From an uncultured Chloroflexia bacterium (GTDB taxonomy: Bacteria > Chloroflexota > Dehalococcoidia > GIF9 > UBA5629), in NCBI GenBank assembly GCA_963705905.1, contig OY970123.1, positions 134,919-198,918 of the forward strand: a stretch of DNA of 64,000 nt. The letters run 5' to 3'. Under the pieces are notes generated by a model. That model was not told the origin of the DNA, did not search any database, and was given only the letters and a program-made list of their open reading frames with translations. The translations under genes were made by a program, and so were the position numbers. Positions 1,662 through 33,132 of this stretch are shown here, piece after piece (the first letter of the stretch is position 1; each line of letters opens with the position of its first letter).

Positions 1662-1838
1662 AATCTATCTCGTCCACGATCACCTAGTACTATTTTACCA
1701 TAAACGATCGGTACCTTTAGGTCTTATATTAAGTACGAGTGAAGCCTAAGATTAAAGCGTAAACAAAAGGGTAAAAAAAGACTCCGTCAGATTAGCTTCG
1801 CGGGCCGGCTGACGGAGCCGAACACAGGAGAGCATCCC

Positions 1839-4917: not shown

Positions 4918-4951
4918 TCTTAAATAATAAACTTGTAATTATAGCTAATTT

Positions 4952-6659: not shown

Positions 6660-6700
6660 GATAATCTCACCGCTCCGCGAGTTAAGAATTCCAGTTCCCA

Positions 6701-7811: not shown

Positions 7812-7819
7812 AAAGCCCT

Positions 7820-8836: not shown

Positions 8837-8975
8837 AACGTATTCTCTCACAGATTGTCGGCCTCGTGCCAGTGTTGGGCTATGGAGGAGACGTTTTTTT
8901 AAATCAGAATATTTTAAGCGCCACCTGGTCATGATAGAATTGTCCGAAAATAGAGTACCGGGGCGGTCAGGCTAA

Positions 8976-10904: not shown

Positions 10905-10928
10905 CATCGGAGCTAGCAATAATTAGTA

Positions 10929-11246
10929 TCAATTTAGCACAGGCATTAATGGAATTTCCGATATATCTTGACTGAACCTTACATCATCCCAGTTAGCTAC
11001 CATTTTATTGTCGAGATATGGATTATTTTTGATTACCTTTTCATAAGATATGCTGGCTAACGGATACCATTTCTGGTCCAGTACGAATGTTTTTTTATCC
11101 GTAATTCCATTGACAGTTATATGGAAGTTGACCTCGCCATCCTTGAATGCCGGTTTTCCTTCGGGAAGAAGCGAGCGAAATAGATGGAATATGGCCTTAT
11201 GCAAGGTCGCATTCCATTCATTCAGCCATGTAGTTGGACTATGCAT
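10929..11246 (-). CDS. Hypothetical small protein
   Basis: 105-aa ORF between convergent genes. No recognisable motifs. Confidence 0.25.
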   Translation of the reverse strand: MHSPTTWLNEWNATLHKAIFHLFRSLLPEGKPAFKDGEVNFHITVNGITDKKTFVLDQKWYPLASISYEKVIKNNPYLDNKMVANWDDVRFSQDISEIPLMPVLN

Positions 11247-11347
11247 TTTGAAAATTCCTGCAATTCAAAATATATATTCAGATCAAGTATTGCACAGACA
11301 ACTGCCCGGTTTAATGCCCATTAGGCCAGGAATACTTACCAATTTGG

Positions 11348-13057
11348 TTATTTCTCTCCTGATGCAAGTATGACATTGCTGGCTGTAGTATTAGACATTG
11401 CAGTCCGCTGATCGCCGATATATCCGGCGACTGCCACAAATTGTTTTTTAGGCGTACCGTCGGCATTAAAGAAGGACCATTGGTCATATTTCCCGCAATA
11501 TACTTCAAATAATGTCACTATACTGGCGCCATGCTTGAAAGCGGCATCTATGTAATCTGGTGTGAAATTCGAATTGTACATAGACGAATCATTGCCTATT
11601 TCCAGCGCCCACCAGCCGGTTGACCGGTAACCGTTCTGTCCTAACCAGGATGTTAGAACATCCAAATTCTTGTTCATCTGTTCAACTGATGGTGCATAAC
11701 AATCAAAGACAGGATTGTCCGTCCTATCAAGACACACCTTTTTCAGCGGTATTTGGTAATCTAATCCACCTAGAGGGGCACCCAGCTTGTGTACTATGGG
11801 GATATTACTTTTAGTGCGGAGCACTCCAATGAGAAAATCCATGTAATTGGCGGCTGCCTCTATAGTATATGTTTGAGGTTTTGCATCGGGAGAATCCGGA
11901 TCTACGACTTTACCCTGTAGCGGAGTGTCAAGTTCATTCTCTGCTACAACAGAAACAACGTTTGAATATTTATTAACGACCGATATCCATCTCTCTGCCC
12001 ATGCCCCCATCGTATCGGCAACCGGATATTGCGCTTCACCAAAACCTATGTCTTCGAACCATGCAGTTCCCGTACAGCTATCGAGAAAACAACATATTGT
12101 GCATCTGGTCGATCCTGCGGGTGCGACAACAGTTCCTTGGTAGTATGTCCAGCCATTTGTCCCCGTAACATACTTCATAACCTGAGAGGACCCTATCCAT
12201 GTATCACCAGGACCCTTCCACCACGGTACGATCATAGCACCACCGTTGCCAACTATGCTCTCCGTTTTAATCCATCCTGATATAAGGTACGATTTACCTG
12301 CTTCAACAGGTATATCTTTAAGCCATCTGGACCACACGTCCGGTTTGTTTTCAGACATTCTTATGCCTACGCAAGGGTTTCCATCTCTTCCCATCTCGCC
12401 AGGGAGGAAAGTAGGGGTGCAATTCTTTGAATCTGGCCACCATAGACTCCATTGGAAATCAGGATTTACCAAATTTTCAAAACCGGGCTGCCATTTCCCA
12501 TAGATGCCGGGTATCACCAGCATCTTGTGCTGGTATAGTAAATCCAGCAAGGTCTTGTAGGCAGTTGCTTCTTCCGGGCAACTGGATGGGAAATTCGTTT
12601 CTTTGGATATTGAAGGCAGCCACCAGTAAATATATTGCATCTGAAGGTGTACAACCCGTATTCCGGCTGCTTGTGCATACGTCAATATCTTGTCATAAAC
12701 CGCTAAATTTTCAGGGAGCCAAAACTGACCGCCTTCACCAAATGGCATATCGTAAAGGCTCAGATCTATGCCCACGAGTTGTTTTTGTTCTCCATCTAAA
12801 ATGAAATACCCATCCCTGCCTATTTGAACGTGTTCAGTACTGCCGTCGGCCCAGGTGATAGCTTTATCCAGCAGATAAGCGTTCTGCGAAGCAGGTTCTA
12901 TGGGTTGCGCCGGAGCAGCTTTAACAATGGAAGGGGCAGAGAATTGACATAATATGATTAGGCTAAAAACAAACGAAAGATACAGCCTTAAGTTCGCCTT
13001 TATGAGCCGGCCCAAATCTAACCGGCCCGGACGTCTACCTGCTAAGGGATGGTTCAC
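11348..13057 (-). CDS. Secreted GH-like protein with inserted CBM-like beta-sandwich domain
   Basis: Hydrophobic signal-like N-terminus. Core is homologous to 1839..3047. Internal domain (IVPWWKGPGDTWIGSSQVMKYVTGTNGWTYYQG...AWFEDIGF) is homologous to the C-terminus of 8976..10904. Apparent GTG start at 13057, preceded by a GGGAGA RBS. Confidence 0.6.
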   Translation of the reverse strand: MNHPLAGRRPGRLDLGRLIKANLRLYLSFVFSLIILCQFSAPSIVKAAPAQPIEPASQNAYLLDKAITWADGSTEHVQIGRDGYFILDGEQKQLVGIDLSLYDMPFGEGGQFWLPENLAVYDKILTYAQAAGIRVVHLQMQYIYWWLPSISKETNFPSSCPEEATAYKTLLDLLYQHKMLVIPGIYGKWQPGFENLVNPDFQWSLWWPDSKNCTPTFLPGEMGRDGNPCVGIRMSENKPDVWSRWLKDIPVEAGKSYLISGWIKTESIVGNGGAMIVPWWKGPGDTWIGSSQVMKYVTGTNGWTYYQGTVVAPAGSTRCTICCFLDSCTGTAWFEDIGFGEAQYPVADTMGAWAERWISVVNKYSNVVSVVAENELDTPLQGKVVDPDSPDAKPQTYTIEAAANYMDFLIGVLRTKSNIPIVHKLGAPLGGLDYQIPLKKVCLDRTDNPVFDCYAPSVEQMNKNLDVLTSWLGQNGYRSTGWWALEIGNDSSMYNSNFTPDYIDAAFKHGASIVTLFEVYCGKYDQWSFFNADGTPKKQFVAVAGYIGDQRTAMSNTTASNVILASGEK

Positions 13058-13118
13058 GGGTTTTCTCCCTGTTCAAAACCTCCGCCAGCGAAGCCTGCCA
13101 AAGCCCTGGCGGATTTCA
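13055..13118. repeat. Leader repeat copy A: ~64 bp, inverted relative to copy B at 26875..26936
   Basis: cacgggttttctccctgt...tccgccagcgaagcctgccaaagccctggcgga matches the reverse complement of 26875..26936. Contains an 8-bp stem hairpin (tccgccag/ctggcgga). Confidence 0.75.
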
Positions 13119-13381
13119 ATATAAAGGTCCTTTGCTTATCGACCCGTGAACAATATATATCTGATCGTGATTGAGATAAATAGAGACTTAGTCCTTTTCC
13201 TTATAGCCCAAAAGTACTTTTACACTAAAGTACTAGGATGGGGATAGTATTAAAGTCCTGGAGTTTATAGATCTATTTAGTACAAAAGTACTGGTCGAAT
13301 ACGATGATTAAGAAGAAAGCACCACTTACGAAAACTCGTGGAGTATATCGGTTGGAAGAGGCAAATCAAATAAGAAGTCTT

Positions 13382-14827
13382 TTATTCTTGCTTTTCTCTA
13401 TTTATATCGATTAAAGACTTGAATGTTTTGAGGTCTTCTTCCGTGATACCTCGAAGCAGATAAAAACTCAGGCAATATATTACTATGCCGATGAAAATTA
13501 AAAGGATAATGTGAAGATATCCAAAGTAGAAAATGAAAAGGCCCATAACGGCACTTGCTATTATTGGCTTTATAAAAGAATTGGCAAGCGCTTTTATCTC
13601 AATGTTTTGGCCGACCATATAGCAGGAAATTAATACGCATATCAGCTGAGTGACTAATGCAGATATAGCGGCCCCTGTAAGGCTAAATTGAGGTATGAGT
13701 ACAAAACTTAATACAGTGTTCATTCCAGCTCCAATGGCGAGCAAAAGTGTAGCCCTCTTTTGTTTGCGTGTAGCCTCAAGAATGCCTACATAAAGAATGT
13801 TTAAAAACAGTAATATTCCTGCCCAGATGAGCAATTGTAGAGAACCGATAGAGTTGCTAAATTGAGAGCCAAAAATAAAAGGAATTATTTTGCCTGCCAA
13901 GAGAGTAACTCCTGTTGCCATCGGAATTAGCAGGACCAATGAATACCTCACTGCTCTTTCGACCAGGGTTCTATATAATTCTTTGGTAAACACAAAAGCA
14001 TGTGCAACAGAAGGAAATAGAGCACGGCCAAAACCTGTGATTATAACAGATAGGGGAATGACTGCCAGAGTATAAGCTGCCGTATACCATCCCACCACTA
14101 TGTCGCCTTTGAGAAAGGCAAGTATAACTGTATCTATTCGAAAGTAAACCTGAACTAGTAGCCCATTTAGTGCAAAAGGAACGGTAGTTACAAGCAAGTA
14201 TTTCCATAAGCTCTCCGCCAGTTTAATACGTGGACGTGTGAACTTAGTGATGACAATGGCCAGGCCGACCGCGAATATCAGTAATTGAGCCGCGCTATAA
14301 ACCCAGACTACTTGCACAAGGTCATAGCCGGAGTATAAGACAAAAAAGCCCACGCCGAGCAGAAAACAAGTGCCGGCTACTGTAGGTACTATATCCCATT
14401 CCATTTTCTCAAAAGCACGGAAAATGGCTCTGCACAGATAAACAAATGATGTTGCGATTGTGCCAAGTGCAACAATATATACCACTGTCCTTGCATCTTG
14501 GGCATTTTGCGAAAGATTGATGGTCAGCATGACCAGGAAAAACATAAAAATGGAGCCGATTACTTGAAGCACGAGAGCATTGCCGAAATACTTCCCGGCT
14601 ACTGACTTATCCAGCACCACATCTCTGGTAACTACAGCCTCCAATCCGAGACTGGAAAAAATCCCAAAAAGGCTGGTAAAAGCAATAGCGAAAGAATATT
14701 TGCCGAATTCAGCGTCGCCAAGGTAGCGGGCAATTAATACGTTAAAAACAAAAAGTGAAGCAGCGAACAGGGCCTGGCTTGATACCATAGAAACAATGTT
14801 TTTAATGATACGCTGGTGTAGATTCAT
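13382..14827 (-). CDS. wzx: Polysaccharide biosynthesis flippase (Wzx, MOP/MATE superfamily)
   Basis: 481 aa, ~12-14 TM helices. Typical oligosaccharide flippase architecture. Confidence 0.75.
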   Translation of the reverse strand: MNLHQRIIKNIVSMVSSQALFAASLFVFNVLIARYLGDAEFGKYSFAIAFTSLFGIFSSLGLEAVVTRDVVLDKSVAGKYFGNALVLQVIGSIFMFFLVMLTINLSQNAQDARTVVYIVALGTIATSFVYLCRAIFRAFEKMEWDIVPTVAGTCFLLGVGFFVLYSGYDLVQVVWVYSAAQLLIFAVGLAIVITKFTRPRIKLAESLWKYLLVTTVPFALNGLLVQVYFRIDTVILAFLKGDIVVGWYTAAYTLAVIPLSVIITGFGRALFPSVAHAFVFTKELYRTLVERAVRYSLVLLIPMATGVTLLAGKIIPFIFGSQFSNSIGSLQLLIWAGILLFLNILYVGILEATRKQKRATLLLAIGAGMNTVLSFVLIPQFSLTGAAISALVTQLICVLISCYMVGQNIEIKALANSFIKPIIASAVMGLFIFYFGYLHIILLIFIGIVIYCLSFYLLRGITEEDLKTFKSLIDINREKQE

Positions 14828-14886
14828 ATTTTACAGACTAAATAACAGATTATTGGCCCTGCCACGGCTGTTCTACCTGTCTTATC

Positions 14887-17151
14887 TTAGGGCATAACGA
14901 ATAACTCACTCTCATTGTTTGAATATATTCTATCTGTCTTTTCTAACAATGGATTTAGTTCTTGTATATTGAAAGTTTCCACCTTAAGGAAAGTAGGCGG
15001 AATTACCATAGTTCCTACGCCATCTACCACATTTATATACCCTAGATAGACATATTCACCACGTCCAATATTTTGTGTATTTTTATTGAGTGGGATTATT
15101 TTCCATTGTGGTACCATTCCATAACCCGCCAGCACATGTACGTTTGCCCCTTCCACAAAAGTGGCGTAGACCTTGGGACCATCGAGCCAAGATCTGTTGG
15201 CTGAAAGCCACTTGGCACTGTAAACTTCTTCCTCCGGTGTAGAATTATTATAAAAATATGCTTTCTCTTCAATGGTCCCATGCTCTTTAATCGATTGTTG
15301 AAGGAGAGATCCCATAAATGTATAATCTCTGGTTATTTCATGTACGAACCCGGAGTTGAATATCAAGAATACTCCCAGGAAAATGGCCATTGTTTTAAGT
15401 GCAACTCCTGTGGCGGATCGGTATCTCCGAAGAAAAAAATTGACTATGATTATAAGACCGGTAATACAAAATGGAGCCAAAAAGACCAGGCTAAGATGAT
15501 AAATTCTTTCAGTATTAATGGTTTTAGCTAGATACGGAATCGGTATAGCAATCGCAGCCATGATAAAACTGGCTACAGCAAGAGACGCAAATTCCTCAGT
15601 AAATATCTTTTTTCTCCACTCAAACAATAGATAGAGAGTTCCTACCGAAATAAGAAATATTGTAAATAGGTTAAGATATTTGACAATTTCATGTGCAGGT
15701 GATCCCACTGTCGCCATAAGCCAAAGTGCTTGTGAAGCCGTTAGGCTCATGAATTCGACTACGAAGGTATTTGCAATATGGTCGCCCAGTCTTATCACGT
15801 CAACAAAAACTGAGGATCCGGCGTTCCATATATACCAGGTGAACCAGAGAATGATGTAGAACGCTACGAAAGTTATATTTATTACCTTGTTTCTTTCTAT
15901 TGGAATTGACTTAGTGGTTTGGCTCCTTCTAGGGATTAATTCATTGGTATTTTCCGACTCATTTGGTGAGCCCCGAGATAGTGTCTTTCGACTGAGAAAT
16001 AAAATAAGTAATGCAGCTAAAAGTAAGAATAAGAAAATGAAGGATATCGAATAATGTGAAAAGATTAGTGCAGCACCAAAAATAATACATAGAATGCTGA
16101 TTATCACAGGATTATTTGGTTTGCTTACGATTACAAGTATTATTAGCACCAGAAAAACTTCCGCCACCTCCTGCCTACCCAACGAAATTAACACAATAAA
16201 AAATGTGAAAACTGACATGAAGAAAAAGGCCGCTAGAAAAGAAATTTTACTATCAATTTGCCTGCTGCATATCTGGTAAATTCCTAGCGGGACGAGTGAG
16301 AGAAAGAACAGATAAATAAGCTTGAAGACCCATGTAGGCTCTAAGTTACAGATGATAGAATATACTGGCGCTAGGATTACTACACTTATTACAGAATTAT
16401 AGTTATGAACGATTGTAGTATTCCATAGCGAATTGGCAATAACAAGGTTATCAAAAAAATATTCGGTATTAACGTCGGCACCAGTCAGATAGTTTGATGT
16501 GAGAGCCTGACCATAGACCAGGGCCAATGCAACGGTTATCACCGCCAGTGGATAGAATCTCTGTGGAATGAATTTAGTGAATATAATTATGACAGGAACC
16601 AAGGCAACTAAAAGAACTGAAGCGAGAAGCAAAATATTATTGCTATAAATGTTGACTATTCGGGCGCCTAAAATGCTAATTAGTGGAAGTAAGGATAGAA
16701 ATAAAACCGGTGGAGTAAGTAGTTGTGTCCAATGAAAATGTCCTGGAGTGGAAAACATTTTATCTCTTCTATAGGCTATATAACAGAGGAGTATTAATAC
16801 CGCAAGGAGAGTTATTACCAAAGGCCAGATTGATATGGGCTTGGAAATTCCTATAAATGGGTAGATTGAATTAATCAGAAGCCCCAAAAACATGGTGAAG
16901 GCGAGACTTAATCCGACTGAATAAAGTAATGTTTCTGCCAAACCCAATCGGTGAAGCCTGAGTATTCGGAGAATGATTAGCCCCGGAATAAAACTGAGAA
17001 AAACAAATGCGACTATTTGTCTTAGAATAGGAATGTCATATCCCAAAGCTCCTAATATTGCCAGGATAAGTACGATAAGAAGGATGGCAAAAATAGTTTT
17101 TAGGAACTTTCCAATCGCCCAGTCATTGATTGCCAATGGATTATTGGTCAT
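14887..17151 (-). CDS. Large polytopic membrane protein (754 aa), putative glycan polymerase/ligase or second GT-C-like enzyme
   Basis: At least 15 hydrophobic helices plus a ~170-aa C-terminal soluble domain. Very AT-rich coding sequence. Sits in the glycan island. Confidence 0.5.
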   Translation of the reverse strand: MTNNPLAINDWAIGKFLKTIFAILLIVLILAILGALGYDIPILRQIVAFVFLSFIPGLIILRILRLHRLGLAETLLYSVGLSLAFTMFLGLLINSIYPFIGISKPISIWPLVITLLAVLILLCYIAYRRDKMFSTPGHFHWTQLLTPPVLFLSLLPLISILGARIVNIYSNNILLLASVLLVALVPVIIIFTKFIPQRFYPLAVITVALALVYGQALTSNYLTGADVNTEYFFDNLVIANSLWNTTIVHNYNSVISVVILAPVYSIICNLEPTWVFKLIYLFFLSLVPLGIYQICSRQIDSKISFLAAFFFMSVFTFFIVLISLGRQEVAEVFLVLIILVIVSKPNNPVIISILCIIFGAALIFSHYSISFIFLFLLLAALLILFLSRKTLSRGSPNESENTNELIPRRSQTTKSIPIERNKVINITFVAFYIILWFTWYIWNAGSSVFVDVIRLGDHIANTFVVEFMSLTASQALWLMATVGSPAHEIVKYLNLFTIFLISVGTLYLLFEWRKKIFTEEFASLAVASFIMAAIAIPIPYLAKTINTERIYHLSLVFLAPFCITGLIIIVNFFLRRYRSATGVALKTMAIFLGVFLIFNSGFVHEITRDYTFMGSLLQQSIKEHGTIEEKAYFYNNSTPEEEVYSAKWLSANRSWLDGPKVYATFVEGANVHVLAGYGMVPQWKIIPLNKNTQNIGRGEYVYLGYINVVDGVGTMVIPPTFLKVETFNIQELNPLLEKTDRIYSNNESELFVMP

Positions 17152-17246
17152 CCAAAAAACCTTGTTCTTTCACGTACTAATCATCGGTCGGATAATGTCC
17201 AAAGTTTGAACACTAGAATTAACATTATCACTTGGTTCGTTTGACC

Positions 17247-18371
17247 TTATATGACCTGTTCATAAATCCTCTCATAATCATCTGCTACCCTATCCCAAGT
17301 TCTTATCCTGGTGCTAAACGGGCCCACTATTGTCTCACTATCGCGAATCTTGACTATCAAGTTAGCCAATTCCCCAGGCACCGGCGGATAATCTATACCA
17401 AAACACCCTGGCTCCGTTAAAAATTCATTTAGGGACGTAGTTTTAGTGACAATACATGGTGTTCCAGCTGCTAATGCTTCCGTCACCATAACACCGTAGG
17501 CTTCTGCCCTTGACAGAAGCAATACTATATCCGCCTCCATTAATTTGCGATGCAGTTCGTGCCGAGGCAGTGGTTTGTGCCAGAAAACATCGCCTTCGAT
17601 TCCTAATTTACAAGCTAGTCTCCGGAGTTTTGGCTCATAGTCCCCTTTTCCGACTATAGTTAAACATGCTTCTCTTCCTCGACGCTTTAGCTCTTTAAGT
17701 GCCAGAATTATATGATGAACTCCCTTTTTTTCCATTAAGACGCCGGCATACAGCAAGGAAATTGAACTTGCCTTCCCTTTCAACACTCCGCGATCCTGCG
17801 CCATCAGGTAATCCACTCCAGGCGTAATTATTTTTATTTTATTGGATTGCACATTGAAATCCTGCATAAGCACCATTTTTGTATAATCAGAATGGATTAC
17901 AATCATTTCGGCCCAATCAAATAACTTCTTACCAATTGGTTTATAGTAATCCAGTAAATATTTACCAGCCAGTGTATTATATTCTTGCCGTGAATAATGC
18001 GCAGAAAAAATAAAAGGTAGATGCTTATTTCGGACTATATATGCCACTGCAGGAGTTAGGAGCCTTCGATATTCATGAAGGTGTATGATATCTGGTTTAA
18101 GAGACCCACCTAAATTCCTTTGTAAGAATTGTGCCATTTCAGGACTAAATTGATAAAGATGCTTGCTTATAGGCGATTTAATCCTAATCACATTGATTCC
18201 ATTTATATTCTCTTCATGCGGTAGATTTCCGGGGTTAATGTTTAGTACCTGGCATTCGTGACCGCGTTTAACTAGTTCTTCCGCCACTCTCTTAATGGAA
18301 TAATTTACACCGCCGATGTCAGTTATTTCTGTGCTACTTACCGTGAGGATTTTCATTATTTTAATTTTCAA
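17247..18371 (-). CDS. Glycosyltransferase family 4
   Basis: MKILTVSS...RGHECQV N-terminal GT-B domain. C-terminal EAYGVMVTEALAAGTPCIV motif. Confidence 0.8.
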   Translation of the reverse strand: MKIKIMKILTVSSTEITDIGGVNYSIKRVAEELVKRGHECQVLNINPGNLPHEENINGINVIRIKSPISKHLYQFSPEMAQFLQRNLGGSLKPDIIHLHEYRRLLTPAVAYIVRNKHLPFIFSAHYSRQEYNTLAGKYLLDYYKPIGKKLFDWAEMIVIHSDYTKMVLMQDFNVQSNKIKIITPGVDYLMAQDRGVLKGKASSISLLYAGVLMEKKGVHHIILALKELKRRGREACLTIVGKGDYEPKLRRLACKLGIEGDVFWHKPLPRHELHRKLMEADIVLLLSRAEAYGVMVTEALAAGTPCIVTKTTSLNEFLTEPGCFGIDYPPVPGELANLIVKIRDSETIVGPFSTRIRTWDRVADDYERIYEQVI

Positions 18372-18404
18372 TAGATGAGAAATCTTTTTTATATAAATGG
18401 AAAG

Positions 18405-19265
18405 TCAGGATTTACCGATCAACAATATGTCTTGATACGATAAGCCATCGCGTCTTCCTGACCAAGTCCCATATTTTATTGATTCTCCAGGCACAAGGCG
18501 CAGACCGTTTTGGGATAATAACCGTAATATATAATCTTCGCTGTAAGCTACAGCCACTTCAGGGCGCGTCTTATATTGATATCGCCAAATATCATCCCCA
18601 AAATTAAAGTCAATTTTATTCAAACCATTAGATTGTTGTTTATTCTGCTCTTGGTTAAGCAGGAAAAAAGTGGCAACACATCTTCCTTTATTTGATAGTA
18701 AACGTCGTATCTCTTTCAAATAACTATCAACTTCGCTCGGTCGCATGTGCGTAAAAACTGATTTAAGAAGTATTATATCAAAAGCCCCCTTTTCGAATGG
18801 AAAAGTGAATTCTTCGGCTGCATACTTTCCATTAGGATTGTATGCTCTATTTTTTACATTAATATGGGCGAAAGTAAAATTTTGATAGTTACTACTTATT
18901 TTCTTTTGACACCACAATATCGAGTCTCGATGAATATCCACACCAACATACTTCCCATCTTTATCTAAATAGTCGATTAATTCGAGCGCCATTAGGCCGG
19001 GCCCGCATCCGATATCCAATATCTGTTCATTTGGGAGAAGATGGCACATCAACTTTAGATAGCCGGTAAATTCTGCTCCTGAATGTCGGAAGCTATCTAA
19101 TGGACCGGCATACCTTCTCAAGAGTAATGGCGGGAGCTTGTGCTCACCATTGATAATCCGCGAAAGGTAATCAATTGGTTCGGCTGCAATAAGTGCAGCG
19201 GACCTCAGGGCTATGCCAATTTTAAGTAAACCATGTGGCATTTTTTGTAGCGATAATTGTTTCAT
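18405..19265 (-). CDS. Class I SAM-dependent methyltransferase
   Basis: ILDIGCGPGLMALEL motif I, 286 aa. Located inside the glycan cluster. Confidence 0.75.
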   Translation of the reverse strand: MKQLSLQKMPHGLLKIGIALRSAALIAAEPIDYLSRIINGEHKLPPLLLRRYAGPLDSFRHSGAEFTGYLKLMCHLLPNEQILDIGCGPGLMALELIDYLDKDGKYVGVDIHRDSILWCQKKISSNYQNFTFAHINVKNRAYNPNGKYAAEEFTFPFEKGAFDIILLKSVFTHMRPSEVDSYLKEIRRLLSNKGRCVATFFLLNQEQNKQQSNGLNKIDFNFGDDIWRYQYKTRPEVAVAYSEDYILRLLSQNGLRLVPGESIKYGTWSGRRDGLSYQDILLIGKS

Positions 19266-19398
19266 AATGATCCTACTTGACGTGATAATAAACTCGTTAT
19301 GGAATCCCGTTTCTATTAAACCGCTATTTTAGATTATTATGGATACGGCTAACTTTTTTATCTGAATTTTCCAGCCTCAGTGGCTCCCTCCCGTTTAG

Positions 19399-20562
19399 CT
19401 ATTGTTTTAGTAATAATTGACTAAACAAAATATTATATTTTTCGGTAATAAAATCCCAGTTATATTCTTCTGCTATCCTTTTAGCATACCGGTTAGCTAT
19501 ATTTTTTAAGTCGACCTGATCACTTTCCAGCGTCTCGATGATGCTTGCCAAACTATCCTCATCCTGAAAGTACAATCCGCCATCTTCTAGGATTTCCCTA
19601 TGGAAAGGGACATCATACGCAATGATGGGTCTCCCGAATGCCATTTGTTCAACTAACGATGGATTGGTACCTCCCAGTCGGTATGAATGAATGTACGCGT
19701 AGCAATTCTTTCTGAGAATGTGCCATGGTTTTTTGTCCCATATTGAGCTTATTAATATTATTTTGGGGTAGCCACGCGCTAATTGGCGCAGTCGCATGGC
19801 GTATCTGTCTTTTTCCTGGAAATTGCCGGCAATAACCATTGATTTGGCAGATTTAGATCTCTTAAATCCTTCTATTTGCCTATGTATATTATTCTCAGCA
19901 ACTACTCTGCACATTGTTAAGTAGTATTCTCCAGCGGTTAAACCATATTGCTGTAAGACTTGATTTTCTTCCATTGCCGTAATATCTAAATTGGGAGACC
20001 GTTCTGACCCGTAGGCTATGAATACCACATTCTGGGCATGATAACGTTTATCGAGGTAATCCTCAATTGCTCGTGAATCCGCAATAACAGCGTGTGATAA
20101 CTTGACAGACATCCACTCCATTAATTTCATATACCATGATAGCGCGACTGCCAACGGCTTCCATCCTGGAGCAAGATACTGTTTTCTTATGAGCGGCCGT
20201 TTCCATTCTATTCCATCTGCATTTATGACTACTGTTTTACCGAGCAGTCTGGGCAATATCGCCGCCACGGCGCCATAATCAAGCACGTAATATACCAGAT
20301 CAATTTTGGGGCATCTTATCTGAAGATGGATGGTGGCCAAAATCTCGTTCAGAGCAGGTACTGTAAATGTCTTGCCTTCGATGGCCGGCGTGTGAATCCT
20401 GGTAACCCCCTCATATTTATCCATTCCAAATTTGCGGGAGTTACATGTAACATAAACCTCATAACCTCGCTGTGCTAGTCCTGGCGCTAGCTCCGAGATA
20501 AAGGTCTCGGCTCCGCCATATTTGGCTGGTATGCCTCTGGCACCAATGATAGCAATCTTCAT
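19399..20562 (-). CDS. Glycosyltransferase (GT4-like, DUF1972-type N-terminus)
   Basis: MKIAIIGARGIPAKYGGAETFISELAPGLAQRGYEVYVTC is typical of the WbuB/rhamnosyltransferase-like GT4 subgroup. Confidence 0.7.
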   Translation of the reverse strand: MKIAIIGARGIPAKYGGAETFISELAPGLAQRGYEVYVTCNSRKFGMDKYEGVTRIHTPAIEGKTFTVPALNEILATIHLQIRCPKIDLVYYVLDYGAVAAILPRLLGKTVVINADGIEWKRPLIRKQYLAPGWKPLAVALSWYMKLMEWMSVKLSHAVIADSRAIEDYLDKRYHAQNVVFIAYGSERSPNLDITAMEENQVLQQYGLTAGEYYLTMCRVVAENNIHRQIEGFKRSKSAKSMVIAGNFQEKDRYAMRLRQLARGYPKIILISSIWDKKPWHILRKNCYAYIHSYRLGGTNPSLVEQMAFGRPIIAYDVPFHREILEDGGLYFQDEDSLASIIETLESDQVDLKNIANRYAKRIAEEYNWDFITEKYNILFSQLLLKQ

Positions 20563-20832
20563 AATTCCTTTTCCTTATGATTATTCCGCATTTTTGTGCC
20601 AACCGTGGCAACAAAACACTCTTAGGGTAAGCTTGTCTATTAATTAAATTAATCTACTCTATCGTAGCCAACCTTAGTGCCTTTGTATTTATCAATCGGC
20701 AGTAGATAGCTGGAATAGAATTCTCCTCGCCTTTCTCATCCGAGCGATCAGCTGCAAATAGCCTTCTATATAGGCCGCGAAACGGGCAGATGTATCTTAT
20801 TGATGGTCTAGATTAAAGGGGAGCAGGCAGCC

Positions 20833-21702
20833 TCAACATAGGACGCCGATTTTTTTTAAATATTTTCGCAGTCCTTCTTCCCAATGGGGCATTATATCCA
20901 TATTCAGCTCTTTCAATTTGCTATTTTCCAGAACAGAGTATTTTGGCCTAGCTACCTTGCCTGCAAATTCATTCGGGTCCGCAACTAGAAGGTTGACTTG
21001 TGTTCCTGTTAGCTGGAATATCTTCGCTGCGAATGTGTACCAAGAACAGCTTCCTTGCGCTGTGACGTGATAAAGTCCATAGTGCCCTACTTTGCTCAAT
21101 TCAACGATTTGTTGGGAAATATCTTCGGTAAACGTAGGGGTTAGCACCTCATCATCGACAACCCGTACTTCCTTTCTTTCCTTTGCTAATTTCAGCATCA
21201 TCTGTATAAAATTGGTTCCCTTTTTGGCTCGACATGGATTGGTTCCATATAATCCTGAAACCCTGAACACAAAATATTTTTTTGCAATAGATCGTATAAA
21301 ATTCTCTCCACAAAGTTTACTATTTCCGTAGATATTTATTGGGAGTGGATAGTCAGTCTCAATATATGGAGTTTTTTTCTTTCCGTCAAAGACATAATCA
21401 GTACTAATATGGAATAACACAAAATCGAGCTCATTAGCCAACAGAGCCAGATTTCTTGCTCCTATCCCATTCACTTCAAATGCTTTAAGCGGCATCGTCT
21501 CACATGCTTCGACATTATGCATGGCTGCAGTATTTACCAGCAAATGGGGTCTAGTTTGTTCAAATTTAGCTTTTGCCAAATTGAAATCAGTAATATCCAA
21601 AACATCATGATCAAATGGGATGACCTCATGGCCACTATTTGAAAACGCTGTGCAGACATCACACCCTAATTGTCCGTTGGCGCCTGTTACCGCAACCCTC
21701 AT
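20833..21702 (-). CDS. rfbD: dTDP-4-dehydrorhamnose reductase
   Basis: MRVAVTGANGQLG...YHISTDYVFDG...YGNSKL. RmlD substrate-binding domain, 289 aa. Confidence 0.8.
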   Translation of the reverse strand: MRVAVTGANGQLGCDVCTAFSNSGHEVIPFDHDVLDITDFNLAKAKFEQTRPHLLVNTAAMHNVEACETMPLKAFEVNGIGARNLALLANELDFVLFHISTDYVFDGKKKTPYIETDYPLPINIYGNSKLCGENFIRSIAKKYFVFRVSGLYGTNPCRAKKGTNFIQMMLKLAKERKEVRVVDDEVLTPTFTEDISQQIVELSKVGHYGLYHVTAQGSCSWYTFAAKIFQLTGTQVNLLVADPNEFAGKVARPKYSVLENSKLKELNMDIMPHWEEGLRKYLKKIGVLC

Positions 21703-21747
21703 AGCATTTAACCTTCAACTCTAATGATACGTGACTGCTATCCGATT

Positions 21748-22716
21748 TTAGGCTCGACCTGCTCTATTCAGCTCCTTAAAAATTTTTATATTATAGTATT
21801 TCGGGTTCTCCATATCTTTGAACTTATCCATATTTTCAGCAAGATTTCGAACCGTATCCTTAACATTAAATCTAGGATTGAAACTCAACACATTTCGTGC
21901 TTTTTCAGACGTTACCTTATAGTTTCTGAAATCCTCTATATGCTTAATGTTAAGCCTGGCAGTGATGCCGAGATGTTCTTTAACCCCTTCTCTGACATAA
22001 TCAGCCACTTCACCTACCGTATAATTCCCGTACGCTATATTAAATATGCCTGATACATTATGATCCACTTCAACAGCACGTATGTACGATGAGGCTGCAT
22101 CCCTGACGTCTAGGATAGGTCTCCAGATTGAAGGGTTATTTACAGTAATTATTTTCTCAGTGACAGCGGTCTTGAACATGGCATTCACAATAAGGTCTAA
22201 ACGCATCCGCGGGCTATAGCCGGATACGGTGCCTTTTCGTAACGCAATGGTTGAGAATTTATCATCCTGAAGCCTGAGACAAGCAAATTCACCCTGGAGT
22301 TTGGAAATTCCGTAAGGGTAGTTTGAAGTAGCGAGCGCCGACTCATCACACAGTACGTCCACAGAATAACCATAAACCGAGCATGAGCAACCGTAGATAA
22401 ATCTTTTGACACCTGCTCGCTTTGAAACGTAGCTGAGATAGGCTGGCAATGCGGCATTGTCAACGAAATTACTGGCCGGAGAATATTCTGCCATAGGGTC
22501 ATTAGAAAGCCCCGCAATAAATATGACCTGGTCATATCCGGAAAGATCCTTTTCCTCCAAAGTCATAATTTCCTTCCGTATCACCTTGATCCCATCAGGC
22601 ATATGGTTCCCAAACCATAGCAGGTCAACTACATCGATCTCATAGCCACGCTCAATAAGTTGTGGAACTAATACCGAACCTAAATAACCGGCTCCGCCTG
22701 CAACAAGAATCTTCAT
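21748..22716 (-). CDS. NAD-dependent sugar epimerase/dehydratase (SDR extended family)
   Basis: MKILVAGGAGYLGS Rossmann motif, YGISK catalytic motif, 322 aa. Confidence 0.75.
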   Translation of the reverse strand: MKILVAGGAGYLGSVLVPQLIERGYEIDVVDLLWFGNHMPDGIKVIRKEIMTLEEKDLSGYDQVIFIAGLSNDPMAEYSPASNFVDNAALPAYLSYVSKRAGVKRFIYGCSCSVYGYSVDVLCDESALATSNYPYGISKLQGEFACLRLQDDKFSTIALRKGTVSGYSPRMRLDLIVNAMFKTAVTEKIITVNNPSIWRPILDVRDAASSYIRAVEVDHNVSGIFNIAYGNYTVGEVADYVREGVKEHLGITARLNIKHIEDFRNYKVTSEKARNVLSFNPRFNVKDTVRNLAENMDKFKDMENPKYYNIKIFKELNRAGRA

Positions 22717-22868
22717 AAAACCTCACATTATTTCTTTTGAACAATTCCTCAAGCATGGTGTCTGCTTTGCTTCCGTACATCGTTTTGTTTTCACAAGTGC
22801 TACTTTCTTACTTAATGATCGCTTAAGAATTTTAAGGGAAATCTCAACAACAGATTATAAGTGTTTTT

Positions 22869-23435
22869 TTAATAACTAAAATTTTGGGATTCTATCCTTT
22901 TTAGCCATTCTGTCAATGTTTGAGCAGATTGATCCTTCTGTGTTACAGTTGGATTTTTTATGGGCCAATTGATTCCAATCTCAGGATCATTCCAACGAAT
23001 CCCTGATTCACATTTATTGTTATAGACGCCAGTACAAAGGTATTGTACCTCGGCATAGTCGCTCAACACGCAAAACCCCCGGGCAAATCCAGCAGGAGCC
23101 CAAACCTGGATTACGTTTTCTTCGGATGCCACAGTTCCAAACCATTTTCCAAGCGTGGGAGACCCTTTTCGTATATCGACCGCAACTAGGAATGCCTTTC
23201 CACGTGTAACGCGCATGAGCTTTCCCATTGGCGGATCCCATTGGAAGTGAAGCCCACGCAAAACTCCTTTAACCGACCCAGAGTGATTCAGCTGAACAAA
23301 TGCATCTGGAAGTCCCAGATTCTTAAACTGATCCTGCCTGTAGACTTCGAAAAAAAAACCTCGTTCATCTCGAAATATTTCCGGAATTACTATGACCACT
23401 TCGTCAATCGATGTTTTTTCAGTGGTTAACTCCAA
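22869..23435 (-). CDS. rfbC: dTDP-4-dehydrorhamnose 3,5-epimerase
   Basis: IPEIFRDERGFFFEVYR...RGLHFQ. Cupin RmlC signature, 188 aa. Confidence 0.85.
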   Translation of the reverse strand: MELTTEKTSIDEVVIVIPEIFRDERGFFFEVYRQDQFKNLGLPDAFVQLNHSGSVKGVLRGLHFQWDPPMGKLMRVTRGKAFLVAVDIRKGSPTLGKWFGTVASEENVIQVWAPAGFARGFCVLSDYAEVQYLCTGVYNNKCESGIRWNDPEIGINWPIKNPTVTQKDQSAQTLTEWLKRIESQNFSY

Positions 23436-23550
23436 TTTTTTACCCTCCTAAACTGACTGCTTATTCTCATTGAAGCTTGGTACAGCAATTGCTTTTTTGG
23501 ATAGTCTCCCTACCAATGTTTAAGATATGCGAAAGGGTTGGACCCAATGT

Positions 23551-24306
23551 CTAGCAATGCCCATTTATTCGTTCCTTGATAATGACCTTCAGTATTTTCC
23601 ATCCATCTTTAAAGGTATGAAGTTTTCCTTTCCCGGAGCGCCTTTTATGTTCCCAGCACGGTATCTCAACTATTTTCAGCCGTTTTTTCCGGGCTTTAAT
23701 AAAGAGCTCTATCTCCATCTCAAACCCATCAGTCTTAAGGTCCATATCAGATATAGCGTTTTTCCAGAATGCGTTGTAACCGTAGGTGATATCAGTGAAT
23801 TTACCTCTGTAGAGCATATTTGCCAGCAATGTAAACATTGTGTTACCAAACATCCTTATTATCGGCATATCCTTTGTGCCGCCGCCAAGAACGAAGCGGG
23901 ACCCTTTGGCAAAATCAAAGCCGTTGTAGAGTGGAATTATAAATAGCGGTAATTCAGAAATATTCATTGATCCATCAGCATCCATTATGCAAACTATATC
24001 GCCCCGTGCTGCCTTTATACCCGCCTTTATAGCGTCCCCTTTGCCCTTTCCTTTCTGATAAATGACTCTCAAATCCGGATACAATTGTCTGGCAACCTCG
24101 ACAGTATCATCAGACGAATTGCCATCGATCAGCATAACTTCATGAATATAGTCGGGCACTTCAGGTAGAAGATATTTCAAATTGGAGGATTCGTTTAATG
24201 TAGGTATCATGAGAGTAACTTTGAGCGCATTCTTAGTAAACGCTTTATATAATAGTTCAGAATAAAATCTACTATCCGTTTCTGCAGGCCGTGTTAGCGT
24301 ATCCAT
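23551..24306 (-). CDS. GT2 glycosyltransferase, polyprenyl-phosphate sugar synthase-like
   Basis: VTLMIPTLNESSNL...LIDGNSSDDT...IMDADGS, 251 aa. Confidence 0.8.
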   Translation of the reverse strand: MDTLTRPAETDSRFYSELLYKAFTKNALKVTLMIPTLNESSNLKYLLPEVPDYIHEVMLIDGNSSDDTVEVARQLYPDLRVIYQKGKGKGDAIKAGIKAARGDIVCIMDADGSMNISELPLFIIPLYNGFDFAKGSRFVLGGGTKDMPIIRMFGNTMFTLLANMLYRGKFTDITYGYNAFWKNAISDMDLKTDGFEMEIELFIKARKKRLKIVEIPCWEHKRRSGKGKLHTFKDGWKILKVIIKERINGHC

Positions 24307-24336
24307 GATATGCCCCCTGTACCTTCAACTGTAAAT

Positions 24337-25245
24337 TCATGAATTTAATCTACTGGATATAAAACTGAATGTTTTTTCGGCCTGTTCTTTGCTAGATACG
24401 CCGACAGCTACACCATAGATGTTAGGTAATCCATCAAGATAGCTCCAGGCCTGTTCCAGCGTAATCAAACCGCCAGCCAAAATAGCGAAAATGATAATAT
24501 CAAATCCATCTGCATTGTTTAGTGCCTTCTCTGCCTCTGTTTTGGATGGATTCATTTGCATGCCGATTGCATTAAGGGGAGTTGTTAACATTATATTGTC
24601 CGGCTTCATATCCCATTGCCTGAATTTTTCCAGTAAGAAGGGAAGATTGCGTGTGTGAAAACCGGGCCTAATATCTAATTCATTCATCGCATCTACGTGT
24701 GAATTAAATAACCATTGCATATCCAGCGCCAACGCCATATCCGTCACTACCTCATGAATAAAAATGCAATCGAGTTCTGCTTTTTTACCGGCGGCGGCTT
24801 TAATTCTGCCCGCCTCATAATAAGCGTACGCTTTAAAAGCAGATCCGGGATCAACAGTCAAAGCTCCTTTAACCCCGTTGACGATCGCTTTATAATTTCC
24901 CGATAGCACAATTTGCGTGGCTATCATCCTTGCCAAACCCACTATTCCTCCTAGCGAAACCGCCAATCGCACATATTCATAAGCATAAGGAATGAATGCG
25001 TAGAGTTTGGGTGAGGAACTGAATTGATATTTGCGAAGAAGGCGCAAAATGGATAGTGTTGTTTCATCTACTGTAAACGTAAATCCTCCGGCGCCGTTAT
25101 TAATAGCTGCCGCCACTATTCCGGCAGCATATTCCGGCTCCCGGATTGCCTGGCCCCTTTGATTCGCCCTATCCTGGGAAACGTGGCTTACTCCATGGAA
25201 TGGATTATCGCCAACCAATGATAATTTCCGTTTTGAATCAGCCAT
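24337..25245 (-). CDS. Hypothetical protein in the sugar-modification cluster
   Basis: 302-aa ORF with coding-like composition. Overlaps the start of the downstream oxidoreductase by 8 nt, suggesting co-translation. No motif recognised. Confidence 0.4.
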   Translation of the reverse strand: MADSKRKLSLVGDNPFHGVSHVSQDRANQRGQAIREPEYAAGIVAAAINNGAGGFTFTVDETTLSILRLLRKYQFSSSPKLYAFIPYAYEYVRLAVSLGGIVGLARMIATQIVLSGNYKAIVNGVKGALTVDPGSAFKAYAYYEAGRIKAAAGKKAELDCIFIHEVVTDMALALDMQWLFNSHVDAMNELDIRPGFHTRNLPFLLEKFRQWDMKPDNIMLTTPLNAIGMQMNPSKTEAEKALNNADGFDIIIFAILAGGLITLEQAWSYLDGLPNIYGVAVGVSSKEQAEKTFSFISSRLNS

Positions 25246-26245
25246 GATGCCCCATTTTTAATATTTTCTCGATAATAAGGTCCGTGTTCGCCGCGCACGA
25301 AAAATCGGAACTGGTTGCATTCCCACTATTTAACGAATCAACAAAGTGTCTGTCCTCATGATAATAGTCAGATTCAGCCAGAAAGAAGGGCACGCCACCT
25401 TCGAGCTCAGGTCTCATTTTATTTACAGATTCCTTATTTGTATTTGAATGGAACTCAAATAGGTCTTCCGTAACATTAATTTTGCCCAGTGTGCCAATAA
25501 CATTAATGCCTATTTCGGGTAATCGATAGTTTGCCCTGGACCAGGAAGCATCGAATGTACCTTCACTGCTGTTACTACAGTTAATTTTTACATGGGCCGA
25601 ATCAACATAACTCAGCTGAGCATTATTTTTCATGGTTAATTCTGCACTTAAAACATCCATGTCTCCGAGCATCCATAACATCATGTCCAGAGCATGGCAA
25701 CCTATGTCACGAAGGACGTCTCCCCGGGCGAATGCCTGGGGGATAAAGTCCCCGTTTGAGCAGAAATCAGATGAATAAGAATGTCCCGCAAATGATGTGA
25801 CTTTCCCTAATTTCCCTTCATCTATATAGGATCTGGCCATTTTAAATGTTGGTGCGAAGCGTTTCATATAGCCGACCATGGTAATGCCCTTGTTTTGTTC
25901 TGCCAGTTCGCAGAGCTCGTTTGATTGGAGATGATCAAAGGTAAACGGTTTTTCGACAAATATATTGTTGGAGATACCTTTTTCATAAATCGTAGTAATA
26001 ACAGGATAGTGAGTGGCTGCCGGCGTAGTGACATACACAGCATCAATTTGAGCGCCTTTAAGCTCCTTTACGTTTTTCACTAATGGGATTCCGGATAGCG
26101 CCCGCTCTCCGAACATGCGAATTAGGCTGTTAGTTTCACAAATGCAAGAGATTTGAACATCCGGCATGCTGCTCAAAATACTCGCATGCAGGAGTCCCAT
26201 TTTCCCCAGGCCGACCAATGCAATCTTTTTCAATCTGCTGTCCAT
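25238..26245 (-). CDS. Gfo/Idh/MocA-family NAD(P)-dependent oxidoreductase
   Basis: IALVGLGKMGLLHA N-terminal Rossmann fold, 335 aa. Typical sugar dehydrogenase architecture. Confidence 0.8.
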   Translation of the reverse strand: MDSRLKKIALVGLGKMGLLHASILSSMPDVQISCICETNSLIRMFGERALSGIPLVKNVKELKGAQIDAVYVTTPAATHYPVITTIYEKGISNNIFVEKPFTFDHLQSNELCELAEQNKGITMVGYMKRFAPTFKMARSYIDEGKLGKVTSFAGHSYSSDFCSNGDFIPQAFARGDVLRDIGCHALDMMLWMLGDMDVLSAELTMKNNAQLSYVDSAHVKINCSNSSEGTFDASWSRANYRLPEIGINVIGTLGKINVTEDLFEFHSNTNKESVNKMRPELEGGVPFFLAESDYYHEDRHFVDSLNSGNATSSDFSCAANTDLIIEKILKMGHHG

Positions 26246-26649
26246 CGCTTCACGTATTCAAATCAAATTATTGAGGAGGCTAGTGCCAGGGACTCAAATT
26301 ATTAACAAGAAGGTTACACTCTACCAGCGCAGCAGACTAATGGCATAAATCCAAGGTTTTGGAATTGGCTTTCTTTCCGCCTCCCCAAATTACCCTTTTG
26401 GAATATATATCCGTTTATCGTCTGGGCTGAAACGCCCTATTATGATTGAGCCATTAATCATTGTCAAGTGCAATTACCTCACAAATAGTAACCAGATTAT
26501 TGGCTACCTTACGTATCCGCACAGGACTATTTTCCTATGCTCAATAGTACCATCTAGGCATTCCAATTATAAGAAATGTTAGCTAAAGTAAGTTGATAAG
26601 ATATTTATTGGTGATTGGAACGCTAAATATAGAATAAAAGAGGTCTGAT

Positions 26650-26856
26650 ATGACAAACGGAAATACGAAATCATTATTGACAACCCGTGAGCTGGCACGG
26701 CTGTTGAATGTTCATATTAATACGGTGAGGCATTGGAGCGACGAGGGAATACTTAAGTCCTTCCGGATTGGTCCCCGGGGAGACAGGCGTTTTTCTCGTG
26801 ATGATGTCATCGCCTTTCTGAGCTCCAGTCAAAGAGGGCCGGAAGTTAAAGCCTGA
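26650..26856 (+). CDS. Excisionase/MerR-family HTH DNA-binding protein (paralog of 4952..5197)
   Basis: LLTTRELARLLNVHINTVRHWSDEGILKSFRIGPRGDRRFSRDDV is ~70% identical to the other copy. Confidence 0.7.
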   Translation: MTNGNTKSLLTTRELARLLNVHINTVRHWSDEGILKSFRIGPRGDRRFSRDDVIAFLSSSQRGPEVKA

Positions 26857-26874
26857 TTTAGAGGCATTTTCCGC

Positions 26875-26936
26875 GAAACTCCGCCAGGGCTTGGCAGGCT
26901 TCGCTGGCGGAGTAAGGCACAGGGAGAAAACCCGTG
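26875..26936. repeat. Leader repeat copy B (inverted relative to 13055..13118), followed by a 14-codon ORF stub
   Basis: The reverse complement aligns to copy A with one indel and an 8-nt variable block. Followed by GGGAGA-N6-GTG and a 14-aa ORF ending in TAA. Confidence 0.75.
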
Positions 26937-27055
26937 CTCACCGCCTATTCTAACAAAGCTAAGGCGCTACCTCAATAAAGATCATACCTTATTTGTCTGC
27001 GTAATTATTTTCGCATCGGTCATCGGCAGCATTCAGTTATGCTGAATACCAAGCT

Positions 27056-28411: not shown

Positions 28412-28659
28412 TTCTTATGATAATACGAGATTTTTGTGCTAAAGGTAAACATTTTGGATGTTATAGTGCGGCAGGTTCGACGTCATATGTAAACCGATTT
28501 GACATGCGTGATACAATTATGAGAGTATAAAGTAGTCTGATGGTCGTATTGACAAATAATGGGGGGAAATTTGGTGGAACGTTGCCGGTATGACCGTCTG
28601 CCACACTTGTATTCCGAGGGCCATATTTATCCCATATTTACCTGCGTACAGGAGGCAAC

Positions 28660-32529: not shown

Positions 32530-32858
32530 TTTGTATTGAAATAGGCTGGCCTAGGATTCCGAGTTCAAGCAGATGGTTGTCACCGCCAACACCACTACGA
32601 CAGCTTACTAATACCAGAATGCCCTGGACTACAATGCCGTCTATTTCTGGCGAGTAAAAGGCCGTAGAGGTTAATGGCCAGAACATCCCGAGCGGATTGG
32701 TCGGCCACCTTCACCTTTACAACAGCATCGGTCCCGATCATCCCTCCGCCACCCACGCAGCCCCCTATCCCCGTCTGGGTATGGGTGCTTATGGCGCTGG
32801 GCAGCATTATCGCAGTCGGCATCCTCTTCCTCATCATGAGGACCCGGCGCCTTTGACG
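32530..32858 (+). pseudogene. Degenerate tandem duplicate of the 3' end (~300 bp) of the surface-protein gene
   Basis: 32551..32858 aligns to 32229..32529 at ~90% identity, with an in-frame stop (ttactaatacc) and frameshifts. Only a 60-aa ORF remains, re-encoding the TM anchor. Confidence 0.6.
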
Positions 32859-32859
32859 C

Positions 32860-33125: not shown

Positions 33126-33132
33126 GAAATAA

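Follow-up and report, generated by a model that had tools for sequence, protein, structure and literature searches.

Two Inverted Copies of a Conserved 5' Leader at a Glycan Locus of an Uncultured Dehalococcoidia Bacterium Are Probably Paralogs Split by an Old Rearrangement

The Locus and Its Two Repeat Copies

The stretch of DNA analyzed here (the window) comprises 64,000 nt of an uncultured Dehalococcoidia bacterium (GenBank assembly GCA_963705905.1, contig OY970123.1, positions 134,919 to 198,918 of the forward strand) and is 100% identical to a Dehalococcoidia metagenome-assembled genome contig, also deposited as GCA_049587495.1. Two copies of a short hairpin element, A and B, lie in it in opposite orientation, on either side of a glycan-assembly operon. 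A previous description made from the letters alone (the sequence-only reading) had proposed that they bound either an invertible segment or a horizontally acquired cassette that split an ancestral unit of helix-turn-helix (HTH) gene, leader and gene. We argue that the inverted repeats are probably old paralogs, each a copy of the same conserved 5'-leader RNA module, which were separated by an ancient rearrangement and are not recombination sites. The features on which this argument depends are the following.

11348..13057, minus strand: GH569, a predicted secreted clan GH-A-like glycoside hydrolase (GH) with an inserted beta-sandwich resembling a carbohydrate-binding module (CBM), 569 aa
13055..13118, minus strand: leader copy A (A-type), the 5' leader of the GH569 gene, with P1 hairpin at 13081-13113, Shine-Dalgarno (SD) sequence GGGAGA at 13064-13069 and GTG start at 13055-13057
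13119..13300, minus strand: promoter spacer upstream of copy A, homologous to the spacer between B and A in lineages with tandem copies
13382..26245, minus strand: glycan-assembly operon of 11 genes
26650..26856, plus strand: HTH2, a stand-alone MerR-like winged helix, BldC/Xis-like, 68 aa
26875..26936, plus strand: leader copy B (B-type), with P1 at 26878-26913, P2 at 26916-26938, SD at 26922-26926 and GTG at 26934-26936
26934..26985, plus strand: stub, a 14-codon open reading frame (ORF) at 26934-26978 plus a conserved TATTCTAACAAAG tract

The coordinates first given for the two copies, and their relation as reverse complements, are confirmed. Read on its sense strand, each copy runs from the hairpin through a short variable block to ACAGGGAGAAAACCCGTG. 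The 18-nt arm CACGGGTTTTCTCCCTGT has two exact occurrences in 64 kb against 0.07 expected by chance, and the 19-nt hairpin core likewise two, with none expected; a covariance model, described below, scores copy B at 95.5 bits and copy A at 58.3 bits (E ~1e-21 and ~1e-12). The finer anatomy requires some correction. What had been called a 33-nt identical block contains a 1-nt indel, an extra T in copy A. The variable block has the reported 8 nt in copy A but 7 nt in copy B, and the stem, reported as 8 bp, has this length in A but 9-10 bp in B, with a 5-bp inner helix in addition. The longest exact words common to both copies are 22, 18 and 13 nt. As originally noted, both hairpins have a GGGAGA site and then a GTG downstream: the GTG of copy A (13057-13055) opens the 569-aa ORF, and that of copy B, which begins 19 nt past the HTH gene, opens the 14-codon ORF.

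Related Genomes Carry the Copies in Tandem

The arrangement in related genomes provides the main clue to the origin of the pair. Four other Dehalococcoidia lineages (loci L032/L127/L137, L052, L138 and L144) have both copies in tandem, on one strand and in the order HTH gene, copy B, short stub, a spacer of ~230 nt with four AGTACTTT boxes in direct repeat, copy A and GH-family gene, B and A being 296-305 nt apart. For L144 the evidence consists of the tandem B and A, the HTH gene there having been neither called nor checked. A gapped 26-base pattern searched in JGI metagenomes returned two more contigs, each with two copies ~297 nt apart on one strand, and L094 has the HTH gene, B and the stub only. 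When the window is aligned to the tandem unit, its B side, up to ~26985, matches the first half, and its A side, between ~13295 and 13055, the second. The two halves thus indicate an ancestral unit that was split within ~25 nt, between the stub and the first box of the spacer. The split HTH-leader-gene unit that had been postulated therefore finds support in a contiguous counterpart in four lineages, and its HTH-leader-gene make-up stands, but with two leader copies in tandem and not one.

The two copies can also be told apart by sequence. B-type copies carry ...GGAGTnnGGCACAGGG and GTGCTTG..., and A-type copies GAATATTGAAAC upstream and (A/T)ACAGGG. As these type-specific bases are common across lineages, the duplication into A and B must have preceded their divergence, and homogenisation of the copies is not under way; on the same ground we reject gene conversion as the source of the similarity of A and B.

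Close and more distant relatives of the window share its split arrangement to differing extents. The description of these requires a few more features of the window.

1778..1847, plus strand: leader copy C, a diverged third copy (23.4 bits), the 5' leader of p402
1839..3047, plus strand: p402, a GH569 paralog without the CBM insert, 402 aa
4952..5197, minus strand: HTH1, an 81-aa paralog of HTH2 (74% identical), first gene of the HTH1-galE-GT2 operon

In a sister species (GCA_049510995.1; L146-L148), whose core proteins are 93-97% identical to those of the window, the architecture is the same: C-p402, HTH1-galE-GT2, the heptose genes and p642 come first, the GH gene with leader A follows on one strand, and HTH2-B is found on the other strand ~12 kb away, adjoining the same metallophosphoesterase gene. 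The more distant L139, whose GH is 76% identical, keeps the order GT4-DUF2206-flippase-spacer-A-GH-p105 at 65-77% amino acid identity, which shows that the junction between operon and spacer is old. In L032, L094 and L138 the glycan operon is divergent from the HTH gene.

A Single Orientation in Assemblies

Inverted repeats of 62-64 nt on both sides, such as invertons and shufflons have, are what one would expect if the 13.7-kb segment were an active invertible (phase-variable) element, in which recombination between A and B puts HTH2 before leader A and the GH gene, and the operon before leader B. A flip of this kind would indeed produce the predicted order of HTH gene, leader A and GH gene, but the promoter spacer would be missing, an arrangement that no relative shows, and the ancestral unit would not be recreated. 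Contigs were retrieved by look-up of HTH2 and the flippase, which gave 16 contigs from at least six samples, 12 of them informative at a junction. At the right junction HTH2 adjoins the metallophosphoesterase gene in 7/7 informative contigs, at the left junction the flippase adjoins GH569 in 5/5, and all contigs are colinear with the window. The assemblies thus show no second orientation, and the sister species is arranged in the same way. Three short-read contigs (L008, L009 and L016) end within the repeat, which might hint at inversion, yet such ends are expected at any repeat longer than the assembler k-mer.

The repeats themselves are also poor candidates for recombination sites. Their longest exact identity, 22 nt, is at or below the minimum for efficient RecA recombination. 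Pfam scans of all ORFs between 11.3 and 32.5 kb detected no recombinase or invertase and no transposase; the only integrase in the window, at 54120-55337, belongs to a small element linked to tRNA-Ile, so that neither invertase nor integrase is found in or beside the segment. In other lineages, moreover, the copies are direct repeats 300 nt apart, and as recombination sites they would delete the promoter between them. Invertons and shufflons (fimS, the capsule promoter inversions of Bacteroides, the R64 shufflon) resemble the locus in having inverted repeats around surface-glycan-linked DNA, whereas the segment in the window has no invertase, shows no second orientation in assemblies, measures 13.7 kb instead of being promoter-sized, and has repeats that are direct in relatives. 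We therefore regard an invertible segment as very improbable.

The Borders of a Variable Glycan Cassette

Nucleotide identity to the sister species (L146/L148; 90-94%) is confined to positions 1-10806 and 26408-36942 of the window, and between these blocks the leader copies alone match. The point where the alignment stops and the point where it resumes define the variable part of the locus.

10807..26407, no strand: hypervariable low-GC cassette, 41.2% GC, wholly replaced in the sister species

The cassette contains the 3' end of p642, within which its left border (10806/10807) falls, followed by p105, GH569, leader A, the spacer and the whole operon; HTH2 and leader B lie outside, in the conserved right flank. 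Between the repeats GC content is 40.7%, against ~50% in the flanks. An AT-rich island bracketed by the repeats had been described, and the low GC inside is real, but the tract also covers the GH gene and copy A. Since its onset, at ~10.0-10.8 kb, precedes copy A, the repeats bracket the operon and not the AT-rich island.

Such base composition, together with contents that differ between close relatives, might also be taken to mean that the repeats are terminal inverted repeats marking the insertion borders of a mobile or horizontally acquired cassette. However, the segment actually replaced has A and the GH gene inside and B and HTH2 outside, so that the comparison with the sister species sets the borders at 10807-26407 and not, as formerly suggested, at the repeats. 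No transposase is present, and no target-site duplication either, since the sequences immediately flanking the repeats are different (…GGATGGTT / CTCACCGC…). A scan of IMG/VR viral contigs and a plasmid BLAST search did not detect the element, and low GC is common to the glycan loci of all relatives. Terminal repeats of a mobile element are, in our judgement, the least credible explanation of the pair.

The operon encodes a flippase (Polysacc_synt), a DUF2206 protein, a glycosyltransferase of family 4 (GT4), a methyltransferase, a second GT4, RmlD, an epimerase, RmlC, a family 2 glycosyltransferase (GT2), a 302-aa protein of unknown type and a GFO/IDH oxidoreductase. The enclosed genes listed earlier (flippase, membrane protein, here DUF2206, GT4 and GT2 enzymes, methyltransferase, RmlC and RmlD) are all accounted for, with two GT4 genes. 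A candidate promoter of the operon, sigma-70-like (TTGACA-17-CATAAT), is situated on the minus strand at 26467-26439. Glycan-assembly genes, an aberrant GC content and an exchange of the block between closely related genomes whose flanks are conserved are all found here, and, judged from these sequence comparisons, the AT-rich region is a hypervariable, O-antigen-like cassette that close relatives exchange through its conserved flanks; this is a matter separate from the repeats. As in hypervariable surface-glycan loci exchanged by homologous recombination within conserved flanks, for example the enterobacterial O-antigen cluster (galF-gnd), a complete low-GC block that encodes a Wzx-type flippase, glycosyltransferases and dTDP-sugar enzymes has here been replaced between flanks that are 90-94% identical. 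In contrast to that cluster, the host is an uncultured Dehalococcoidia bacterium, and the cassette includes genes for a DUF2206 membrane protein and for a secreted GH preceded by a conserved leader of its own, in which JUMPstart/ops is absent. The ops sequence GGCGGTAG occurs exactly only at 34239 and 49754 of the window, which is chance level; GGCGGAG is present inside the P1 stem of the leader.

Genes for a HAD phosphatase, a SIS isomerase and a GHMP kinase at 6701-8932 constitute a heptose-nucleotide-type pathway beside the glycan loci. The entire region from 0 to 27 kb of the window is related to the envelope glycan.

The Leader as a Probable RNA Element

A covariance model built from 8 copies of the leader subsequently found 16 copies in 10 loci, and two further copies occur in the sister species. 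Every copy precedes a member of the GH family or else is a copy B; family genes with the leader in front are those of L139, L140, L142, L143, L144 and L148, and p402. The predicted structure begins with P1, composed of an outer helix of 9-10 bp, an inner helix of 5 bp and a near-invariant loop. A few bases 3' of it, in P2, the GGG of the SD pairs with CCC just before the start codon, and the start codon itself is paired with upstream bases. In the 16-copy alignment 91.6% of cells are paired and 6 pairs are changed on both sides; 0-2 of 500 shuffles attain the observed values, and slid controls are 31-47% paired. RNAalifold recovered P1 and P2 de novo from MAFFT alignments of both the A-type and the B-type set. 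Copy C, which is also present in the sister species, has a compensatory change from C-G to U-A in P1. The start-codon position holds GTG, ATG or TTG in all copies and nothing else, and such a start together with the leader is kept before orthologs or paralogs in L139, L148, L032, L052, L138, L142 and L144. The element thus combines structure and compensatory changes with a fixed position relative to SD and start codon, and is moderately supported as a structured cis-regulatory leader of predicted function.

The covariance model is specific: it gave no false match in 724 kb of unrelated genomes in which the 18-mer core happens to occur. Rfam 15 at the gathering threshold found tRNAs only across the whole window, and in E-value mode on the tandem unit returned chance snoRNA matches only, with E above 4. 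From its sequence and distribution the element appears to be a previously undescribed mRNA leader, absent from Rfam, in front of a rare Dehalococcoidia-specific family of secreted GH-A-type enzymes, whose genes are found at cell-envelope glycan loci beside an HTH gene of 68-81 aa that resembles BldC. It recalls other stem-loops of 5' untranslated regions (ompA-type stabilisers, leaders of S-layer genes, ROSE and fourU thermometers) in the stable hairpin just 5' of the ribosome-binding site and the second helix pairing SD and start codon. It differs from them in having no Rfam match, an almost invariant loop and one copy with no gene behind it. The near invariance of the P1 loop suggests a specific partner.

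The hairpin block might instead act as DNA, as a palindromic operator of the HTH protein. Its outer arms CTCCGCCAG / CTGGCGGAG are palindromic and lie beside an HTH gene, and the two-sided compensatory changes (in L052 A, window C and L140) suit an operator as well as an RNA. One-sided changes in P1 are more informative: 11 cells become G-U on the sense strand, against 1-2 of the opposite kind. On the antisense strand the same changes would read as A-C mismatches, as they would in a DNA palindrome, which they break; they therefore favour an RNA hairpin. Moreover, promoter and start codon always have the element between them, at a fixed spacing to the SD, and BldC-type proteins bind direct repeats, which the spacer has. 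An operator is accordingly improbable as an account of the hairpin.

Beyond the structure, we consider with some hesitation that the leader with its P0, P1 and P2 hairpins might constitute a new class of cis-regulatory RNA, specific to a Dehalococcoidia family of envelope-glycan hydrolases and read at the invariant P1 loop by a protein, small RNA or ligand dedicated to it. The orphan copy B on the transcript of the BldC-like regulator would then be an exapted pseudo-leader, an upstream ORF or a decoy, tying expression of the regulator to the same signal.

A complementarity of 13 nt (92%) between 13049-13061 and 13142-13154 joins the presumed 5' end of leader A with the start-codon region; 9 nt of it are retained in L139, and it is absent in more distant lineages.

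Copy B and Its Stub

Copy B precedes no intact gene. The stub peptides of the various lineages (MLTAYSNKAKALPQ, MLAVYSNKAS, MLDTYSNRVS...) and the TATTCTAACAAAG tract can be aligned to the start of the coding region in intact members of the L140/L143/p402 subfamily (such as VLNFYSSTRVN), and copy B is thus the leader plus ~10-14 codons of a paralog whose body has been deleted. The frame of the stub is not kept, its length varying among lineages between 4, 6, 10, 14 and 21 codons. Both observations would suit a decaying relic that has no present function, in which case the inverted repeat would be functionally meaningless. However, copy B of the window is 94-97% identical to that of L032, L052, L094 and L138, where the adjacent HTH coding sequence is only 66-82% identical, and P1, P2, SD and start codon are kept in B of every lineage. 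Conservation so far above that of the neighbouring gene argues for a retained function, and we find the relic explanation unlikely, if less so than an operator.

HTH Genes, Boxes and Promoters

The HTH gene called at 26650-26856 by the sequence-only reading is borne out by a Pfam match to HTH_17/MerR. At ~68 aa, HTH2 has the size of the BldC family and consists of a MerR-type winged HTH alone, with neither coiled coil nor effector domain. Matches in the PDB are weak and include BldC (6AMA/6AMK at E 0.008-0.02) as well as phage Xis. BldC binds direct repeats as head-to-tail multimers (PMC5859096). The likeness to Streptomyces BldC thus extends from the lone 68-aa winged helix, without dimerisation or effector domain, to arrays of direct repeats in the promoter region. 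In contrast, sequence similarity is weak (E ~0.01 in PDB), phylum and target genes are different, and the AGTACTTT boxes are candidate sites. These boxes, of the form (C/T)AG(T/G)ACTTT, are four direct repeats in the promoter spacer (minus strand):

13285-13292: first box
13252-13259: second box
13227-13234: third box
13211-13218: fourth box

The four (C/T)AGTACTTT boxes occupy conserved positions at ~-166, -141, -116 and -99 from P1. After them come a weak -35, TATATT as a candidate -10, and P0, a small hairpin (GGTC...GACC) with compensatory changes. Over the window the motif occurs 15 times against 6 expected, a number reached in 0/100 shuffles, and 6 of the 15 occurrences are in the spacer. 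Box-like motifs are also present upstream of HTH1, HTH2 and copy C; the one belonging to HTH1 is:

5318-5325: box-like AGGACTTT, upstream of HTH1

Boxes of TAGTAC type were seen at 1685-1745, upstream of copy C and p402. A simple promoter and terminator scan gave no terminator after copy A or B and no strong promoter for copy A. Two other candidates were discarded. A sigma-54 -24/-12 reading of TGGCAGGCTTCGC was dropped by eye, its spacing and -12 element being a misfit. A small invertible HTH cassette, bounded by a 14-nt imperfect inverted repeat (26597-26610 / 26973-26986) around HTH2, B and the stub, is at chance level (12/14 matches in an AT-rich 700 nt).

The HTH gene varies in orientation among loci. 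Relative to galE-GT2 it is co-directional in the window (4952-5197) and divergent in L138 (9780-9968); relative to the GH gene it is divergent in L140, differing in this from L032. Comparison of the loci indicates that this small gene has been flipped repeatedly during their evolution.

Proposed History and Regulation

The separation of paralogous leaders, which we prefer to the alternatives above, can be set out as follows. The ancestral layout would have been HTH gene, B with its stub, spacer with four AGTACTTT boxes and promoter, copy A and GH gene. In the clade of the window one old rearrangement would have placed the glycan operon between stub and spacer and left B inverted relative to A. 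A single inversion of the block made up of glycan operon, HTH gene and B-stub is the simplest path, and an insertion plus an inversion would also do; under either, A and B became inverted as a result of the rearrangement, and their orientation did not cause it. In terms of regulation, the HTH protein or proteins would bind the direct-repeat boxes and control the GH promoter, and the leader would act as sense-strand RNA, setting translation, mRNA stability or both. Copy B might persist because it plays a related part, at the RNA level, on the HTH transcript. Taken alone, this regulatory mechanism (control through HTH protein and boxes, action of the leader RNA) has, in our estimate, slightly less than an even chance of being correct.

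Several points weigh against these proposals. Assemblies display the majority orientation only, and a rare inverted subpopulation would escape them. Covariation is modest, which we attribute to the strong conservation of the element, and the first, 8-copy alignment was not significant; the alignment of 16 copies was made to fit the model and consists of related sequences. The genome scan with the 18-mer GGCAGGCTTCGCTGGCGG produced mostly chance matches, more than 116 of them in GC-rich genomes among the matches listed, with four true Dehalococcoidia loci (L032, L052, L094 and L127) recognised by inspection of the flanks, and the copy count is that of the window plus the retrieved loci. Transcription start, translation of the stub and binding of the HTH protein to the boxes are inferred. 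Finally, the tandem layout is taken as ancestral by parsimony, from a count of four lineages against one clade.

If the proposed history is right, a 13.7-kb phase-variable switch gives way to tandem leaders split inside a swapped glycan locus. The BldC-like regulator, the array of direct-repeat boxes and the two-hairpin leader would together form a compact module that is absent from current libraries. The class in which it occurs is uncultured and widespread in the environment, and its cell envelope and gene regulation have hardly been studied. The orphan leader B, far better conserved than the adjacent gene, offers a case, open to experiment, in which the 5' end of a pseudogene would have been kept for a function at the RNA level.

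GH569 and Its Family

GH569 has no match in Pfam, and a sequence search of the PDB yielded nothing useful. The label of GH with CBM given to it earlier, although without support from Pfam, is nevertheless borne out by structure prediction and family alignment. An AlphaFold model (mean pLDDT 77.5) matched GH5_18 mannosidases and PslG in Foldseek at E ~1e-7, and also CBM16. The family alignment contains an invariant NE...E motif, with E375 (in NELD) and E486 invariant. The protein is thus predicted to combine a (beta/alpha)8 barrel, a conserved N-E acid/base, a second catalytic Glu and a beta-sandwich, as in a clan GH-A enzyme with a CBM. The positional homolog in L148 matches Pfam Glyco_hydro_53. 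The family is rare, with just 25 homologs among 5.8 billion clusters. Like the GHs of exopolysaccharide operons (PslG, BcsZ), GH569 is encoded at the end of a glycan-assembly operon, and its predicted GH-A TIM barrel matches PslG/GH5_18. It differs from these enzymes in its inserted CBM16/CBM4_9-like module, the lack of a Pfam match and the mere 25 homologs.

The NCBI annotation of the same genome begins GH569 14 codons downstream, giving 555 aa (window 13015-13057). The conservation of leader, SD and start codon (GTG/ATG/TTG) in eight lineages favours 13057 as the true start. The 642-aa membrane protein p642 (8976-10904) has a C-terminal CBM_4_9-like domain that is 41-47% identical to the GH569 insert.

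Other Features of the Window

The tyrosine integrase ORF at 54120-55337 abuts tRNA-Ile. The 3' part of tRNA-Ile(gat) is present twice, as a perfect direct repeat of 46 nt (51470-51515 / 55274-55319), and at 53521-53645 a unit of 34 nt is repeated three times. The region from 51.5 to 55.3 kb looks like a small integrated element of ~3.8 kb. At and just beyond the 3' end of a 1289-aa ORF there is a tandem duplication of ~325 nt (32221-33100; 92-94% identical), which is also present in the sister species, and 3' of it lie 54/92-nt repeats rich in GATTCGTTTT.

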